A DNA stretch of 64,000 bases from Sedimentisphaerales bacterium (GTDB lineage Bacteria > Planctomycetota > Phycisphaerae > Sedimentisphaerales > SM23-30): positions 64,001 to 128,000 of the forward strand of contig CAXXFK010000025.1 of the NCBI GenBank assembly GCA_963663965.2, in the 5' to 3' direction. The translations under genes and the position numbers were made by a program. Under the pieces are notes generated by a model. The model did not search any database. It was not told the DNA's origin and saw nothing but the letters and a program-made list of their open reading frames with translations. This document shows, piece after piece, positions 32,424 through 40,325 of this stretch. The first letter of the stretch is position 1, and every line of letters begins with the position of its first letter.

Positions 32424-32906
32424 ATGAAAAAATATAATTATATAAAACAAGCCATCGTGTTAGTGATTGTTGTGGCGGGTATTTTAGTTTTATTGAATTT
32501 TATTGGCGTAACAGAAAGGCCAGGTAGTATTCAGCCGTCGTTGGTAGATAATGAACTTATCTTCAAAATTAAATATGGTACAACAAATGGATTGCTCAAG
32601 CTCATAATTAGAGATGCCGAAACGAACAGTATTGTTTGGGATATCAATTTAAATTATTTCTATGGGGATAAATTGGCATATGGCGAAATACCTAAAGAAT
32701 TTGAAACTGACAATGGCGTAATCAATAATGCCAAGCAAAATATTCCTGCGGATGGCAAGCCTGTTGATTTGGTTGAGGGAAAAGTATATGAAATATATTC
32801 TGACTGGCAATATGATGCCTTTATTTCAGCGTTCGTTGGTAGTAGAGAGGAATACTTTAAGATAGAAAAAAATAATATTGTATTTGTAGAACGGACCAAT
32901 AATTGA
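32424..32906 (+). CDS. Hypothetical membrane-anchored protein (cassette 1, putative immunity protein)
   Basis: AT-rich ORF with one N-terminal TM helix. Shares a W-D-[IL]-N, YG..P, A.Q pattern with 33297 and 34774. Confidence 0.7.
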   Translation: MKKYNYIKQAIVLVIVVAGILVLLNFIGVTERPGSIQPSLVDNELIFKIKYGTTNGLLKLIIRDAETNSIVWDINLNYFYGDKLAYGEIPKEFETDNGVINNAKQNIPADGKPVDLVEGKVYEIYSDWQYDAFISAFVGSREEYFKIEKNNIVFVERTNN

Positions 32907-32912
32907 AATTAA

Positions 32913-33100
32913 TTATGCCCTAGACCACCGCATCGAGATGCGGGTGAGGTGGTGGATACTGTGACGCGCTATTACTTCAATGACCGCTGGCAGGTGGTGA
33001 TGGAGATTGTCGAGATTTTAAAGAAAAATATTTTAGACAGGATCATCCCGATAGCCATCGGGACTTTTAGCTCATTGACAGGATGGATCAGAAAAAAGTG
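32913..33100 (+). repeat. Junction repeat copy 2: RHS-core remnant plus GACAGGAT leader
   Basis: Translates YALDHRIEMRV / (frameshift) EVVDTVTRYYFNDRWQVVMEIVE, like the RHS core YDALGRRIEK...TRYYY..WQV.EE. Then attttaaagaaaaatattttagacaggat...tgacaggatggatcagaaa. Confidence 0.8.
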
Positions 33101-33296
33101 ATGGATAATAATGCGTTATACAACGACAAGCTGTGCTTGACCGGTGCCATTCGTGACAGGTTGTCGAGGTTACCCGGCCGCGCTTTGGGTTGGGGAATGA
33201 AGTCTTTGACACACTGCCATTATTCTTTGGGTATGCCCCAATCCAAGTTTGGGTTATCAGACCTGTATTTCATCAGGTTTAGGAACGAGTTCTAAT

Positions 33297-33755
33297 ATGC
33301 TAATTAAATGGTTTAAAATTTTGATTGTTACAATATTGTGTTGCGTTATATTTGTTTTAATTTGGCTAATAGGTATTATGCCATATCATGGGGTCAATAT
33401 AGACATATTATCTAATCCCAATTTAGTGATATCCATGAAGCCATATGGCACGAGATTCAGAGGCATTAATTCCGTCATATTTAAGAGTATGAATGATATT
33501 GAATTATGGACAGTAGATTATCATCTAGGTGGAGCTGATAGCGCTTTGGAATATGGGATAACTCCTGAAGGTTGTGATCAGAGAGCTGAGGCGAAACAAT
33601 TAGAAGATGAGATGTTGGTAATAGTTCAGATATATGGCTATTGGCCTATTCCTTGTATTGATGCAGAAGTATTTTGTATTAAAAGAAATACCGATGGACA
33701 TTATGAAATCGATAAGAGAATTACAAAAAAATACAAAGGTCTAAATCTGCCCTAG
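33297..33755 (+). CDS. Hypothetical membrane-anchored protein (cassette 2, putative immunity protein)
   Basis: ATG 33297 directly after TAA 33293-33295. N-terminal TM helix. Clear paralog of 34774-35235. Confidence 0.7.
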   Translation: MLIKWFKILIVTILCCVIFVLIWLIGIMPYHGVNIDILSNPNLVISMKPYGTRFRGINSVIFKSMNDIELWTVDYHLGGADSALEYGITPEGCDQRAEAKQLEDEMLVIVQIYGYWPIPCIDAEVFCIKRNTDGHYEIDKRITKKYKGLNLP

Positions 33756-33838
33756 ATCTAACAAGTTGAAATAACGCCATTTTTATTAAAGCTAATAAGA
33801 GTTGTAAGTCTATGGCAATGGGATTGATGAATAAATTT

Positions 33839-33911
33839 AGAAAAATAATTTAGACAGGATGACAGGATGGATCAGAAAATAGTGACTGAAAATTTATAGG
33901 GTACGCTTATC
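33839..33911 (+). repeat. Junction repeat copy 3: GACAGGAT leader plus degenerate GxxExxY start
   Basis: agaaaaataatttagacaggatgacaggatggatcagaaaatagtgactgaaaatttatagggtacgcttatc aligns with copy 1 with a one-base deletion. Confidence 0.75.
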
Positions 33912-33928
33912 TGTCAGGATATTGTGTT

Positions 33929-34483
33929 GTGATAATGAAAAGAAAATATGTAATCATTGTACTAATAATTTTGACGATATGGATCGTCTGGTATGAGATT
34001 CAATTTAATACTTTTTTGAAAAGATATGATATATTTTACGATGGTGGAAAGCTCAGATTTGTTGGCAGTGGACACTCAAAATTTGACATAACAATTTATG
34101 GTGTCGATATTACCGGTTATAAAAATTCTGATATCAGATTGAATTTCAATAACCTTGATATTCCCATTAATGATATTAGCCGGGAACAAATCAAAGAGTT
34201 ATTAGATGCTCAGCCGGACATTGGCTATGAGATAAATACGGATGGGACTATTGCCATTGGAACAAAATATTTAAATGGATACCTGATCCATGATTTTACG
34301 ATTTATTTGACCGATGAAGAATTTACTGTCAGCGTCAGTCTGGAACATAATAAAACTAATACTAATCAGTGTATTTTGATCATGCCTGATAAGCCCACGA
34401 TTGGTATTCCGATTAAAAGGAGTGAATTGATTAAAAAAATGGGAAAACCGGAAGAACAGTCAATCACGAGAGAATTTCCATAA
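33929..34483 (+). CDS. Hypothetical membrane-anchored protein (cassette 3)
   Basis: AT-rich 184-aa ORF with one N-terminal TM helix and C-terminal ELIKKMGKPE. No family recognised. Confidence 0.7.
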   Translation: MIMKRKYVIIVLIILTIWIVWYEIQFNTFLKRYDIFYDGGKLRFVGSGHSKFDITIYGVDITGYKNSDIRLNFNNLDIPINDISREQIKELLDAQPDIGYEINTDGTIAIGTKYLNGYLIHDFTIYLTDEEFTVSVSLEHNKTNTNQCILIMPDKPTIGIPIKRSELIKKMGKPEEQSITREFP

Positions 34484-34505
34484 TTTATAATAATAGTGCC
34501 TTAAG

Positions 34506-34608
34506 ATGACGCAGTATTATTACTATGGCCGCTGGCAGATGGTGATGGAGATCGTTGAGATTTTAAAGAAAATATTTTAGACAGGATGACAGGATTGACA
34601 GGATGGAT
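34506..34608 (+). repeat. Junction repeat copy 4: RHS-core remnant plus GACAGGAT x3
   Basis: Translates MTQYYYYGRWQMVMEIVE, then attttaaagaaaatattttagacaggatgacaggattgacaggatggat. Confidence 0.8.
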
Positions 34609-34773
34609 ATACAATATGAGACATGCGGCAAGATTGAGGTGTTATATGGGGATGGATTGGCTGGAACAGCCGTTAGTTACCACGGAATACACGGACCACG
34701 CGGAAGAAAACAGAGGAGAAAGAAGCGTTGTGTTTTGGCGATTGGATGTTAATAAACTAATAATCAGGTAGAG

Positions 34774-35235
34774 GTGGCTATGAAAGGCAAGACGATATGG
34801 ATAATAGTTGGTATATTTATAATATCAACCATTTTGTATTATTGTTTTAAATCTTCATATTATGGTGTGGATATGACAGTGATCGATGCCTCAAAACCTG
34901 TTTTTGAGTTCAGGCAATATGGAATATCGAAACAAGGATTATGTTCAATGCATTTTGAAACAATTGACAGAACAATGCTCTGGGATTTAAACATTATCAA
35001 TGCTCCTTCGAGTATACAAATGACCTATGGCATTGTGCCAGATGATGCTGAACAGTTACAAGAACCACTTGATTTGCCGCCGGAAGAGATATGGGTTTTT
35101 GTTGAAGGGATTTTTGATGTTCCGATTCCGGTAATTGCAACCGAGTCATATCGCATCAAGAAAATCGAAGGACAATATGTTATTACTAAACGAACTTCGG
35201 GTATATTCAAGCCGATCAACCTGGCAGGATTATGA
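34774..35235 (+). CDS. Hypothetical membrane-anchored protein (cassette 4, putative immunity protein)
   Basis: N-terminal TM helix. YYGVD...YG...LWDLN...YGIVP..AEQ...PIP...KRT...NL aligns with 33297-33755. Confidence 0.7.
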   Translation: MAMKGKTIWIIVGIFIISTILYYCFKSSYYGVDMTVIDASKPVFEFRQYGISKQGLCSMHFETIDRTMLWDLNIINAPSSIQMTYGIVPDDAEQLQEPLDLPPEEIWVFVEGIFDVPIPVIATESYRIKKIEGQYVITKRTSGIFKPINLAGL

Positions 35236-35429
35236 GCCGGAGGTGAATTCGACGGAGTTGCCGGAACAGCCGGTTATTACCACCGAGGTCGTCGAGTTCA
35301 CAGAGGGTCCCAATGGTGTTTTGACTGTGAATGAGTTATTTGCTTTAGCGGCCGATCCGAACGATTCATTGGGTGCGCTGCTGGATCCCAATAGTATGGG
35401 ACTGATTGGGTAGTGTCAAGAATCTTTCG

Positions 35430-37365
35430 GTAGCGCCAGGTAACTGGCAAGGAGTAGCGGATGCAAGAGCCGTACAATGAAGGTTTAGCAAACCACATTG
35501 GCCCCGAGTCATGTGGGCATACCGGTAACGGTATGCTTGAAGCGTTGACAGGGGAAGATGCGGGCTGGGTATTGAGCCGCGTAAGTTTGTACATTATAGA
35601 ACGGAGTGCCGACGCTGTCGAAAATGTCGGAAGGCAACACCGGATGTCTTATTATCGCGAGAGACATTCCGGACTCCGCGCGGTCGAAGACCCCAGGCAC
35701 GCATGGACACTTCTTGCACAGGAACTGGGAGATCCCTTGTTTGGCCTCAGGACACATTATCCTGTGGTCCGCACAGAAAATCCAATTGGAGTACTGCTGT
35801 GATGAACGAACAGGGGAAGTCGGACAGGCCCATAGTACCTAAGAAGTTCTCGAACAAAGAGGCTGGTTGCCATGCCTTGGCGGAGAGGATAGAGGGAAGG
35901 GGCCTGACCAAGGGCAATTCGTCTCTACTGCACAAGTGCCGGACACCGGGCCGGGAAAGCTTGCCAAACGCATTAGAACGAATACGACAGGCAGCCACCC
36001 GGGATAAACAGCTAAAGTTTACTTCCCTGTGGCATCATGTCTATCATGTCGACCACCTGAGAGAAGAATTCTATCGCATTAAGCGGCAGGCTTCCCCGGG
36101 TGTGGACGACCAGACATGGCAAGAGTATGAGGCCGGGTTAGAGAACAATCTCAATAGCCTGGCAGAACGACTGAGAAAGGGGGCATATCGGGCAAAACCG
36201 GTAAGGCGGGTATTCATCCCCAAACCGGATGGACGCCAGCGTCCCATTGGTATTACTACCATTGAGGATAAAATCGTCCAGCGTAGCACGACTACGGTAT
36301 TGAACGCTATTTATGAGGCTGACTTCAAAGGCTTCTCCTATGGCTTTCGTCCCGGTCGCAGTGCTCACAACGCCTTAGATGCTCTCTATGTCGGCATACT
36401 CAAGCGTAAGATAAACTGGGTACTCGACGCTGACATCAGCGGCTTCTTTGATGCCATCGATCACGATTGGCTGATTAGATTCGTCGAGCACCGAATCGGA
36501 GACCCGCGAGTAGTACGGCATATCAAGAAATGGTTGAATGCTGGAGTCGTGGAAGAAGACAAACTTCTGCAGATCAAGGAAGGCACCCCGCAAGGTGGGA
36601 GCATATCGCCATTGCTGGCGAATATCTACCTTCATTATGTATTTGATCTGTGGGCTGACCAATGGCGAAAGCGTAACGCCAAAGGGCATATGATTATCGT
36701 TCGATATGCTGACGATATCGTTGTCGGATTCCAATATCAATCGGATGCCAATAGATTTCATACGGACCTGCAGAATCGATTTGGCAAGTTCAAGTTGAAG
36801 CTTCATCCGGCCAAAACCCGGCTCATTCAGTTCGGCCGCTATGCGACAGAACGAAGGACTACTCAAGGTAAAGGCAAGCCTGAGACATTCGACTTTCTTG
36901 GCTTTACGCACATCTGTTCCAAGTCAAGTAAAGGTCGGTTTATGTTGCTCCGGTTGCCGATGAGAAAGCGGGTGCAGGCCAAGCTAAAGGAAATCAAGGA
37001 ACAGCTCAAATACCGGCGCTATACCTCGATTCCGGAGATGGGCCAGTGGCTTCACTCTGTTATCAGCGGCTGGTACCGATACTACGCCGTTCCTAATACA
37101 TCTCGCTATCTTGGCACCTTTCGCCGTAGGGTCGCCTGGCTTTGGTTCAGAGCGTTAAGAAGACGCAGTCAACGAAGCCGCATGACCTGGAGGCGAATGT
37201 ACCAACTGATAGCAAGATGGCTTCCGCAGCCTAAAATTCTGCATCCGTACCCCCAGGCACGCTTACAAGCTGCTCGTTATGACCCGAGGTAGGAGCCGTA
37301 TGCGGTAGTTCCGCTCGTACGGATCTGTGCGGGGGGCTGGGAGTAATCCCAGTCCCTACCGCGAC
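35430..37365 (+). mobile_element. Group II intron (probably bacterial class E-like, IIB)
   Basis: Domain V gagccgtatgcggtagttccgctcgtacggatc at about 37293, domain VI ending ...ccctaccgcgAC at 37365. Removing 35430-37365 restores the IS TIR. Candidate EBS1 cgaaaa at 35619-35624. Confidence 0.9.
35802..37292 (+). CDS. ltrA: Group II intron reverse transcriptase/maturase without HNH domain
   Basis: PGVD, IPKPDGRQRPIGI, SYGFRPGRS, DADISGFFD, GTPQGGSISPLLANIYL, RYADD, FDFLGF and maturase X domain. Start MNEQGKSD at 35802 preferred over 35703. Confidence 0.95.
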   Translation: MNEQGKSDRPIVPKKFSNKEAGCHALAERIEGRGLTKGNSSLLHKCRTPGRESLPNALERIRQAATRDKQLKFTSLWHHVYHVDHLREEFYRIKRQASPGVDDQTWQEYEAGLENNLNSLAERLRKGAYRAKPVRRVFIPKPDGRQRPIGITTIEDKIVQRSTTTVLNAIYEADFKGFSYGFRPGRSAHNALDALYVGILKRKINWVLDADISGFFDAIDHDWLIRFVEHRIGDPRVVRHIKKWLNAGVVEEDKLLQIKEGTPQGGSISPLLANIYLHYVFDLWADQWRKRNAKGHMIIVRYADDIVVGFQYQSDANRFHTDLQNRFGKFKLKLHPAKTRLIQFGRYATERRTTQGKGKPETFDFLGFTHICSKSSKGRFMLLRLPMRKRVQAKLKEIKEQLKYRRYTSIPEMGQWLHSVISGWYRYYAVPNTSRYLGTFRRRVAWLWFRALRRRSQRSRMTWRRMYQLIARWLPQPKILHPYPQARLQAARYDPR

Positions 37366-37469
37366 CACATTTTTTATTAGTCTTTCATCTGGTAGAGTCT
37401 TTCAATGGAGGAGGGAGGGACAACTCCCTGCCCTGCCTCCCCGAGGGGAGGCAAAAATTTATCGGACGA

Positions 37470-38711
37470 TCATGCCATGACCACCTCCTCTTTTTCAGCT
37501 TTTTTCTCCTTCTCCAACTCATACAAATGATCCATATTCAAATAACGCCTCGTACCCCATTGGGTGCCGGCAATATGTCTCAGGCGGGCCGTGGCCAGCA
37601 TCAGGGCCGAGTGACCATCCGGGAAATTGCCCACCACGCGCGTACGACGACGAATCTCACGCATGATCCGCTCCAGTGGATTATTGGTTCGCAACTGCCG
37701 CCAGTGCTTGTCGGGATATTGATAGTAAGTGAGTGTTTCGAGATAGCTTTCCTGGACCAATTCAGCGGCCTTGCCCAGTTTCATCTCCCGCAATTTGACA
37801 ATCACTTGCTCGGCCTTCTGGATCGCCGCCTGGCGGTCTTCCTGGGCATGGATGGCCTTGAGCATGGCCGCTACCTCTCGCACCTTCTTGCGCGGCACAT
37901 GACTGAACACGTTGCGATACCAGTGGACCGTGCAGCGCTGCCAGTCGGCCTCCGGAAAAACCTCGGCCAGCGCGTCCACCAGACCCAGGCATTTGTCGGA
38001 AACAAACAGGCGAACGCCCTGCAGGCCGCGGCGCTTTAAATCGCGTAAGAAACCGCCCCAACCGGCTTTATCCTCTTTGGCGCCCTCGCAGGAACCCAGC
38101 ACTTCGCGATAGCCCTCCTGATCGACGGCAATGGCCACCAGAATCGAAACATTCTTGACTTCGCCGCCCCAGCAACGTTTCAAAACGATGCCGTCCAGAT
38201 AGACATAGGGATACGACCCTTCCAGTTTGCGGTTGCGCCATTGGTCGATCTGTTGATAGACTTTCTGATTCAGATTGCTGATGGTGCCCGCACTGACACG
38301 GGCGCCCCACAGGCTTTCGGCGATGTCTTCGATACGCCGGACCGAAACGCCGGCCAGATACATCTCGATCAGGGCCTCTTCTACCGAAGACTCCCGGCGT
38401 TTATAGCGCTCGATGATGGCGGTTTCAAAGGTCGTTTTTCGCAGCTTGGGCATCTTCAAATTCACTTCGCCGGTCGTCGTATGAAACTTACGCGGATAAT
38501 AGCCCGCCCGGGTATCGGTGCGGGCCTGGGTATGTTCATAACGCTGGGCGTTGCAGAGCTGGTCCGCCTCGGCGTCCAGCAGGGCATTGAGCGTGTCTTC
38601 CACACTCTGGCGCACCATCTGGCCCAACTGATCCTTCATCTGGGATTGGTCGATTTTTAAAATTTGGTTCAAGTTCCTAACGTCACTGGTCGATTCTTCT
38701 GTTTGACTCAT
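37470..38711 (-). CDS. IS256-family (Mutator-like) DDE transposase
   Basis: IEMYLAGVSVRR, YVYLDG, GYREVLG, LFVSDK, WQRCTVHWYRN, RTNNPLERIMREIRRRTRVVGNFP. RBS AAAGGA precedes ATG at 38711. Confidence 0.95.
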   Translation of the reverse strand: MSQTEESTSDVRNLNQILKIDQSQMKDQLGQMVRQSVEDTLNALLDAEADQLCNAQRYEHTQARTDTRAGYYPRKFHTTTGEVNLKMPKLRKTTFETAIIERYKRRESSVEEALIEMYLAGVSVRRIEDIAESLWGARVSAGTISNLNQKVYQQIDQWRNRKLEGSYPYVYLDGIVLKRCWGGEVKNVSILVAIAVDQEGYREVLGSCEGAKEDKAGWGGFLRDLKRRGLQGVRLFVSDKCLGLVDALAEVFPEADWQRCTVHWYRNVFSHVPRKKVREVAAMLKAIHAQEDRQAAIQKAEQVIVKLREMKLGKAAELVQESYLETLTYYQYPDKHWRQLRTNNPLERIMREIRRRTRVVGNFPDGHSALMLATARLRHIAGTQWGTRRYLNMDHLYELEKEKKAEKEEVVMA

Positions 38712-38902
38712 AGTCAGTCCTTTCATTTGGTGGTAGGTTTCGGTTTCAAAAACTTCATCGACCAGATGAAGGACTGTTTTTACGGTGTCCTATAATATGT
38801 GCGAAAAATATTTTACCTTATCACTGATTGCTGCTGATACAGGGATATCAGTTATAAAAAATGTAGTGCAATACAGTAAAAAAACAATCTAGGAAAATTA
38901 AT

Positions 38903-39301
38903 ATGAAGATTGGGAATCAAAAAGTCTTTAGTGTTATTTTGTTAGTTGGTTTAGCTACAATAGTTTATATGTTAATTAAATCAAATGGAAACAATGAAAA
39001 CGATGAATTAGTAGAGACGATGTCGATATATGTAATTGAAAAGAATCCTAACAAAGTGTCTGAGATACCAATTAAATTTCATAAAGAAGATAAAATTACA
39101 AATACCGTGTGGATTGAATGTAACATAAAAGATAAAGGCAATGCTTATTATAAGGCTACAGAAGGATCATCATTTTCATTAGATGAAAATCCTGATTTAA
39201 CCAATAAACCGATTGATATAAATCTGTGTTTATTAAAAAATGAAGACGATAAAATTATTGTAGGTACAACTTTTGGATTATCATTGGAAGTAATTAAATA
39301 A
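38903..39301 (+). CDS. Hypothetical membrane-anchored protein (cassette 5)
   Basis: Very AT-rich 132-aa ORF with one N-terminal TM helix and AGGA RBS; followed by junction repeat copy 5. Confidence 0.7.
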   Translation: MKIGNQKVFSVILLVGLATIVYMLIKSNGNNENDELVETMSIYVIEKNPNKVSEIPIKFHKEDKITNTVWIECNIKDKGNAYYKATEGSSFSLDENPDLTNKPIDINLCLLKNEDDKIIVGTTFGLSLEVIK

Positions 39302-39317
39302 ATTATGTGCCAGATAG

Positions 39318-39467
39318 TTACAACAATGACCGCTGGCAGATGGTGATGGAGATTTTCGAGTATTTAAAGAAAAATATTTTAGACAGGATCATCCCGATCC
39401 CGATGGCTCGGGATTTCGCTTTGCTCAATATCCGGGACTTTCAGCTTATTGACAGGATGGATCAGGA
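39318..39467 (+). repeat. Junction repeat copy 5: RHS-core remnant plus GACAGGAT leader with doubly nested palindromic insert
   Basis: Translates YNNDRWQMVMEIFE, then tatttaaagaaaaatattttagacaggat-catcccgatcccgatggctcgggatttcgctttgctcaatatccgggactttcagcttat-tgacaggatggatcag. Confidence 0.8.
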
Positions 39468-40025
39468 ATTGCTGGGAATTTATGTAACGCAAAGGCGCAG
39501 GGTTGGGATGAGTTGATTGCCACTGATACGAGGATACAGGGATTTTTGCCGAAGATTCTGGTAATGCGTGTGACAGCTTCGGCGGCGGGGTGGCGTTCTT
39601 TCGGCTCCTCCTGAGGCGGATCTTCGACTTTCGGGCCTTTTGCGGGGGTCAATTTTTTCCGAATAAAAACACGCTGAAGGGCCTGTTGCCCAAAAGTAAA
39701 TCAAGCATCTCTGCTTGACATTTAGTCATTCCAAACGTGGTTTTTAAGCTGATAATCGGGTTAATGTCATAATCAAAACAACACTCTTAAGTTAAATTGG
39801 CTTTAAGCAACATGCCCTGAAGCGTGAACTCCGAACGGGCCAGAGACTGACAGCCCACCGGGCTTCAGTTGTGCAGATGTGAGTATTATTAATATTGTGA
39901 GAGGAGGGTGTGATGTATTATAATAAACAGGATGGGCGGAATTCAGGCTGTCTAGCCATTTAGAGAGACAGTACTTGTTTTTTAGGAGTAATTGTGATAA
40001 TTATAAATAGAATAGCATACTTTAT

Positions 40026-40325
40026 ATGCATAGCAATATGAACAATAAAAAACTGATATTATTAATATTGATTATAGATGCCATCCTTATTGGTATTACC
40101 GGGATTTTAGTGTCAAATAAAGAATATAGTTCGATGATGATGCAGTCAGTTTTCGCATTTCTGGCCGGTATTGTGCAAATTATTCTTTGCATTTCCGGCC
40201 TCATAGTCAACAGGCGCTTTTATAATAAGGGGGCGATATTATTTTATATCCTGCATATAATTATCACGCTGGTTTTTGTAAATATTTCAGATAGCGGATA
40301 TTTTTACCATAAATATGGACACTAA
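40026..40325 (+). CDS. Small three-TM membrane protein (cassette 6)
   Basis: AT-rich 99-aa ORF with three hydrophobic helices. Confidence 0.6.
   Translation: MHSNMNNKKLILLILIIDAILIGITGILVSNKEYSSMMMQSVFAFLAGIVQIILCISGLIVNRRFYNKGAILFYILHIIITLVFVNISDSGYFYHKYGH

Follow-up and report, generated by a model that had tools for sequence, protein, structure and literature searches.

An endonuclease-lacking class E group II intron at a fixed position in both terminal inverted repeats of an IS256-type insertion sequence, likely placed there by retrohoming

The closest described counterpart of the arrangement reported here is RmInt2 of S. meliloti GR4, published in 2014, all copies of which lie in the inverted repeats of ISRm17 (PMC4615759; PMC5894124). 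Its authors pointed out that the number of targets is doubled and that one target on the lagging strand is ensured, and the preference of an endonuclease-lacking intron for the lagging-strand template was shown experimentally (PMC4615759). RmInt1 in ISRm2011-2 and introns in transposase ORFs likewise live on insertion sequences (IS) and are thought to limit the spread of the IS (PMC5894124). Among IS256-family elements, which move by copy-out-paste-in, a close known relative is ISCth4, in the structure of which the N-terminal domain of the transposase binds bp 14-25 of the terminal inverted repeat (TIR); a -35 box is found at bp 6-11 of its right TIR and a TAAAAT box at bp 8-13 of its left TIR (PMC7780238). 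ISCth4 ends of less than 25 bp integrate poorly, either end may be the donor, and a junction without one of the subterminal sites still integrates, more slowly (PMC7780238).

The window analysed here, a stretch of 64,000 nt from the draft genome of a Sedimentisphaerales bacterium (contig CAXXFK010000025.1; the genome is called G000 below), contains an IS256-family element with a TIR that is split at bp 21|22 by an endonuclease-lacking class E intron. The intron probably reached this position, and the same position in other copies, by retrohoming, in which the repeat is paired with the intron RNA and the end on the lagging-strand template is likely picked; a probability of about 0.86 is given to this reading. 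As with RmInt2, no endonuclease is encoded, every copy is in an inverted repeat of an IS, the two sites of each IS are on opposite replication strands and the EBS2 pairing is relaxed, the lagging-template bias being experimental for RmInt2 and inferred here. RmInt2 belongs to class D, whereas the present intron is of class E and the intron-encoded proteins (IEP) are 33 % identical; ISRm17 is a member of the ISNCY/ISDol1 group (PMC10194956), not of IS256; the 5' flank shared by the RmInt2 copies is at most 19 nt, whereas the present insertion falls within the subterminal binding site, between bp 21 and 22; and RmInt2 is reported from one strain, whereas the present lineage was found in at least six other sources. 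The strategy itself is already known from RmInt2 and ISRm17, and it is the intron class, the IS family and the deeper site which are new, a strategy shown for a class D intron of a single strain being extended to another class and IS family. A literature search over a collection with few subscription papers found neither introns in IS256 TIRs nor class E introns at IS ends to have been reported, and the accessible parts of PMC1525189, PMC7923331, PMC3522654 and PMC4424553 contain nothing on introns in IS256 TIRs. The features of the locus are as follows.

35401..35408, no strand: left copy of the 8-bp target site duplication, ACTGATTG, from the sequence and the comparison of copies
35409..35429, plus strand: outer 21 bp of the right TIR, GGTAGTGTCAAGAATCTTTCG, which is the 5' exon of the intron
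35414-35419, minus strand: outward -35 box TTGACA, bp 6-11 of the right TIR, positioned as the -35 box of ISCth4 (PMC7780238)
35414..35421, plus strand: candidate IBS2 (-16 to -9), 6/8 paired with EBS2
35424..35429, plus strand: IBS1 CTTTCG, 5/6 paired with EBS1 (6/6 at the other TIR)
35430..37365, plus strand: class E group II intron, 1,936 nt, GTAGCG...CGCGAC, antisense to the transposase
35586..35593, plus strand: candidate EBS2, TTTGTACA, register -9 to -16
35619..35624, plus strand: EBS1 CGAAAA in the d3 loop, with the delta-position U before it at 35618
35640..35672, plus strand: hairpin with a conserved GCGA/GCAA terminal loop (GC(G/A)AG), read as a candidate alpha-prime stem-loop of class E/F (feature from PMC3753933)
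35686..35686, plus strand: EBS3 (G), pairing with C at +1 of the 3' exon
35802..37292, plus strand: IEP, a reverse transcriptase (RT)/maturase of about 496 aa (predicted start codon) with YADD
37292..37365, plus strand: domain V with the 5-nt loop UAGUU, and domain VI with A37358 bulged (position -8), from folding
37366..37371, plus strand: inner part of the right TIR, bp 22-27, the start of the 3' exon (CACATT from 37366)
37470..38726, minus strand: IS256-family transposase, 418 aa, the frame being open in all 6 IS copies
38796..38822, minus strand: left TIR, intact, with the second target empty between 38802 and 38801
within 38796..38822, minus strand: inward -10 box TAAAAT, bp 8-13 of the left TIR
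38823..38830, no strand: right copy of the 8-bp target site duplication, ACTGATTG, from the sequence and the comparison of copies

The IS256-family element extends over 35409-38822, is bounded by the intact 8-bp duplication and is 1,478 bp long once the intron is subtracted. Its transposase matched NF033543 (IS256) with 366.6 bits (cut-off 150) and also PF00872, and is homologous to the TnpA of ISCth4 (PDB 6xg8, E 3.8e-52). The traits of the IS256 family found here are a Mutator-type DDE transposase, TIRs, an 8-bp duplication and split -35 and -10 boxes, and ISCth4 has the same length of duplication and both boxes at the same TIR positions, whereas its subterminal motif is TGTAAA (PMC7780238) and that of the present element TGCGAA, split by the intron in 5/6 copies. 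Of the first 27 bp, 19 agree between right and left TIR, as do 12/14 over bp 14-27. The empty target in the left TIR of the window is at the same base as that occupied in the copies on contigs C2 and C21. The split TIR had been described in the first-pass annotation of the window with exact coordinates (35409-35429, an intron of 1,936 nt, CACATT at 37366, antisense to the transposase), and the split stands, but what was named the left IS end is the right end, downstream of the transposase, which is drawn left in the window. The boundary of the intron is unable to slide, as the 5' exon ends with G and the intron with C and the intron starts with G and the 3' exon with C, and it is exact because an empty IS copy on contig C13 fixes it. 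Around the IS, at window positions 32424-35235 and 38903-40325, several short ORFs of 99-184 aa follow one another on the plus strand, with hydrophobic N-termini, and three of these resemble one another by eye.

The intron RNA matched RF02005 with 182.7 bits, and domains V and VI matched RF00029 with 38 bits (E 2.4e-05), below the gathering score of 40. A domain I, V and VI structure with a bulged A was present according to Rfam models and folds, and the intron's 3' end is AC. The IEP matched TIGR04416 with 376 bits (cut-off 300); Pfam gave RT families only, and no endonuclease domain was found in the protein, which stops within about 200 aa of YADD. It has 51 % identity (E 4.9e-112) with the disrupted intron ORF on pRmeGR4b and 32 % with the intact one. 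According to PMC5894124, this plasmid has a single copy of RmInt1 and a class E intron that is disrupted, and from this description the labels were assigned, S.me.I4 (class E) for the disrupted and RmInt1 (class D) for the intact ORF. A 5-nt domain V loop and alpha-prime in a terminal loop are features of class E/F (PMC3753933), and the class E (IIE) introns S.me.I4 and Cl.be.I2 share with the present intron the 5-nt loop, a terminal alpha-prime-type stem-loop and the absence of an endonuclease domain (PMC3753933; PMC3552965). On the grounds of the IEP being closest to the class E reference, the 5-nt domain V loop, the alpha-prime-type hairpin and the lack of an endonuclease, the intron is assigned to bacterial class E, the IEP comparison having comprised a single class E reference and neither a class F reference nor a reference tree.

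Unlike the class E references, the intron has an IS end as its target and GUAGCG as its 5' end, which departs from the GUGYG consensus and is one nucleotide longer, the end being fixed by the empty site. Longer 5' ends were found at 43/105 junctions of relatives (11 three-letter and 32 GAAA prefixes), so that GUAGCG is a variant of the lineage, not a defect. Many class E introns at loci from actinobacterial metagenome-assembled genomes (L021-L073) start with GAAAGCG, two bases beyond GUGYG, and have a fully paired EBS1.

In G000, a draft genome of 42 contigs, BLAST gave five full copies of the intron, which are 99.9-100 % identical, and six of the IS, and the Rfam model recovered the same five introns. 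All five were at bp 21|22 of a TIR of the same IS, at the right end on C25, C28 and C6 and at the left end on C21 and C2; a full copy outside a TIR was not found in G000. The sixth IS, on C13, is intron-free and reads TTTTTCG|CACATT. Because the genome has 4,735 TTTCGC sites, of which 12 are the TIR sites, the presence of 5/5 intron copies within those 12 is not a chance match. The proposal of the first-pass annotation that the intron homes to IS256 TIRs is thus supported in the whole genome: alignment of all intron and IS copies with their flanks, which it had suggested as a check, gave no full copy in an unrelated target, and the C13 copy has the sequence predicted for the intron-free end. 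The five near-identical copies imply that the intron was probably active recently.

The 8-bp duplication was perfect in 5/6 IS copies and absent for C28. None of the six IS copies carried introns at both ends (P = 0.24 by chance), whereas on pRmeGR4d (W02 1678600-1684060) both ends of one ISRm17 contain RmInt2, the two copies facing inwards, and the published system thus allows double occupancy.

Further observations were made on these contigs. The IS on C28 (C28:182289-185702), without matching duplication, abuts a truncated ORF of 552 aa, Hsp70-like by eye, and a deletion or recombination between copies is the likely cause. On C21 an element of 1.32 kb, which recurs in near-identical form six more times in the genome, is inserted between the left TIR and the transposase start (C21:26460-27790), and the IS copy on C2 has six clustered changes at the same spot; in the intron of C21 (C21:27852-29788) a one-base insertion in an A run alters the last 18 residues of the IEP. 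A degenerate relative of the intron (C2:53400-56200; 78 % identity over 109 nt at C2:53420) follows left-end-like sequence 250 bp upstream of the full copy on C2, and is interrupted at about 108 nt by an element of 2.6 kb which encodes a 547-aa ORF. Two non-IS sites, on C6 (minus strand, about 105 kb) and at C40:67800, share GGTAAACTTTCGCACATTTTGTAA, with the core target present and empty, and are possibly a regulator site or the end of another element.

Target recognition was analysed from 105 distinct junctions of related loci, the 5' ends of which were defined without EBS1; duplicate junctions were removed, and tandem copies with GAC/GAT-ending intron exons were dropped where detected. Sixty-four distinct EBS1 hexamers were found in the 105 junctions, with 5.45/6 positions paired with the own exon, compared with 2.69 ± 0.11 in 2,000 shuffles (maximum 3.09), and this covariation confirms the predicted EBS1, CGAAAA, which together with its pairing counts (5/6 here, 6/6 at the other TIR) had been given correctly at the outset. 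EBS3 formed a Watson-Crick pair with exon position +1 in 45/49 introns with both ends. The candidate EBS2 was placed in the part of the coordination strand that follows AAG (two registers with z of about 10, 94 introns), and in the eight closest junctions the register -9 to -16 gave 47/64 paired positions compared with 21-35 in five other registers; register -8, with 21/64 paired, was rejected for this clade. Pairing of EBS2 with the own exon exceeded that in shuffles modestly, the sequences being related (38/56 compared with 32.3, P = 0.014). The fit in the window is partial, 6/8 at the right and 5/8 at the left end, and this fits an EBS2 which is a compromise for two unlike ends. EBS1, EBS2 and EBS3 are mapped here by natural covariation.

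Outside G000, nine 5' junctions from six sources had a distance of 21 nt to the tip of an end resembling those of IS256 (L169, L313, L247, L253, L090, L283, L285, L306 and L312). A full IS256 transposase adjoins L169, L283 and L285 and a decayed one L090; at L313, L247, L253, L306 and L312 the IS end was recognised by likeness alone and the introns are truncated. L284 sits in a diverged IS relic, and L087 and L088/L089 lack their 5' ends and are followed by CACAT and a remnant of the transposase N-terminus. L137 has the same EBS1, a 3' exon which is not IS-like and a 5' end which is cut off. In the complete genome G132, two copies are in a full IS and one in a diverged IS relic, with none clearly outside an IS. 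Within the clade EBS1 tracks the target: CGAAAC occurs with GTTTCG in G132 and CGCATT with TATGCG at L312. Eight IEPs were on one branch (SH-aLRT 97) of a quick tree of 84 rows, in which the clade label leaves out L312, without a usable IEP, and includes L137 on EBS1 identity alone.

Matches to the 5' region of the intron were found in 9/201 genomes of the order, G000 and more distant introns included. A scan of the genome contig collection for the exact intron-TIR junction pattern gave no match, and the EBS1-loop pattern gave 2 matches in genome contigs and 0 in viral contigs. The family-level protein search matched 2/24 other genomes, both with 41-42 % identity, which corresponds to other introns. 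The 35429-37366 joint was also seen in contigs of runs X1, X2 and X4 and was not counted, since X1 and X2 possibly represent the source sample itself and the side seen in X4 is just 21 letters long. No RNA data set was among the sequencing runs listed for the intron.

All five copies in G000 are on the locally G-rich strand (P = 0.031, five events on draft contigs), and the skew at wobble positions had the same sign in 5/5, although weak at C6 (+0.017) and C28 (+0.057), values which are means of the two gene strands. The positions of dnaA gave no orientation for the five contigs. The end with the intron likely corresponds to that expected on the lagging-strand template. That the end is instead determined by transcription, with insertion into the non-template strand of a transcribed region, or at random, and not by the fork, is rather unlikely, and would concern the choice of end only, not homing to the TIR. 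Genes favour the G-rich strand as well (1,221 compared with 752), the introns on C25, C21 and C2 are co-oriented with the flanking genes, only five events are available, and the local skews in G132 are +0.25, +0.02 and +0.02 on a noisy profile. Against transcription, the intron on C6 is antisense both to the transposase and to the host-side ORF interrupted by the IS, so its orientation follows skew and not transcription; the intron on C28 is antisense to the transposase and to the far-flank gene, and the lagging-template bias of endonuclease-lacking introns is experimental (PMC4615759). Two targets per IS, as originally claimed, are present and both ends are used (3 right, 2 left), but the two are probably not equivalent, the data fitting one usable (lagging-template) end per copy.

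The intron could also have entered an IS once or twice and then have spread as a passenger of a transposing composite of IS and intron, which is improbable. Such spread would be consistent with the perfect and different 8-bp duplications of 4/5 occupied copies and with the ability of ISCth4 to use either TIR as donor and to integrate a junction with one short TIR (PMC7780238), but the use of both ends requires at least two homing events in any case, and passenger spread would not link the occupied end to the G-rich strand. In addition, the three right-end copies have identical introns in IS bodies differing at 6 sites (P = 0.0066 if moved as a unit), and two IS copies in G132 differ at 8 sites around identical introns. 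Because identical introns are found in non-identical IS copies, it is simpler to assume that the intron homed separately into IS copies which had diverged beforehand. The IS haplotypes look mosaic, and recombination may inflate the IS differences between copies. No move of a composite of IS and intron was visible in the two genomes G000 and G132.

It is still less probable that the target is loose and short, and that introns survive in TIRs only since insertions elsewhere are purged. At 790/4,735 TTTCG|C sites at least 5/8 EBS2 positions are paired, RNA pairing alone thus being unspecific, and L137 may be ectopic; yet full copies outside a TIR were absent in G000 (5/5 inside) and none was clearly outside an IS in G132, though many of the empty sites must be harmless, and EBS1 tracks the TIR variants across the clade. 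As pairing alone fits hundreds of empty sites, further bases are likely read by the protein, probably those from +2 to +5 and in the distal 5' exon. An assembly artefact from collapsed repeats, conceivable where two repeated elements are joined in a draft of 42 contigs, is scarcely credible, as each copy has distinct flanks, duplications and SNPs and the same arrangement occurs in other genomes (L169, G132).

In the retrohoming reading, the intron would be transcribed by read-through from the flanking DNA and then be excised with its protein, and reverse splicing would occur into the single-stranded lagging template at the fork, with the nascent strand as primer, as for RmInt1 and RmInt2, the extra bases being read by the protein. 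As the N-terminal domain of ISCth4 binds bp 14-25, an intron at bp 21|22 would cut the subterminal site and remove bp 22-25 from it; the placing of the insertion in the transposase-binding core by the first-pass annotation agrees, by homology, with this range (PMC7780238). Insertions of the RmInt1 type break the transposase frame, which can be restored by splicing (PMC5894124), whereas here the frame is spared and it is a cis-site in the DNA that would be broken, which splicing could not repair. An occupied end would likely be a poor donor and the copy would move less; empty copies may still be mobilised by its transposase, which would provide new targets. The poor-donor step is weakened by the integration of an ISCth4 junction lacking one subterminal site, and the immobilisation of the IS which had been suggested goes beyond the evidence, since ISCth4 still integrates a junction with one truncated TIR (PMC7780238); reduced mobility of the IS is the likely effect of the intron. 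With the insertion at the site where an IS256-family transposase grips the end, the system offers a test of control by an intron through DNA cis-sites, not through the transcript.

More tentatively, and with somewhat less than even odds, these copies may represent a long-lived class E lineage specialised on the IS256 subterminal site, which would re-tune EBS1 and EBS2 as the repeats drift and freeze the occupied IS in cis, while the transposase would still copy empty IS and thereby generate new targets. Together with a sister lineage at IS1380 ends, this would make homing to IS ends one of the major niches of group II introns, evolved repeatedly, and not a curiosity of one strain.

A separate class E branch (12 labelled rows, SH-aLRT 98) is inserted at ends of the type CCCTAACGTTG|CATAAA (L118, L120, L099, L109, L117, L126, L008 and others). 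The intron at L118 is flanked by two IS1380 transposases, and downstream of that at L099 its own 5' flank recurs as a short inverted repeat.
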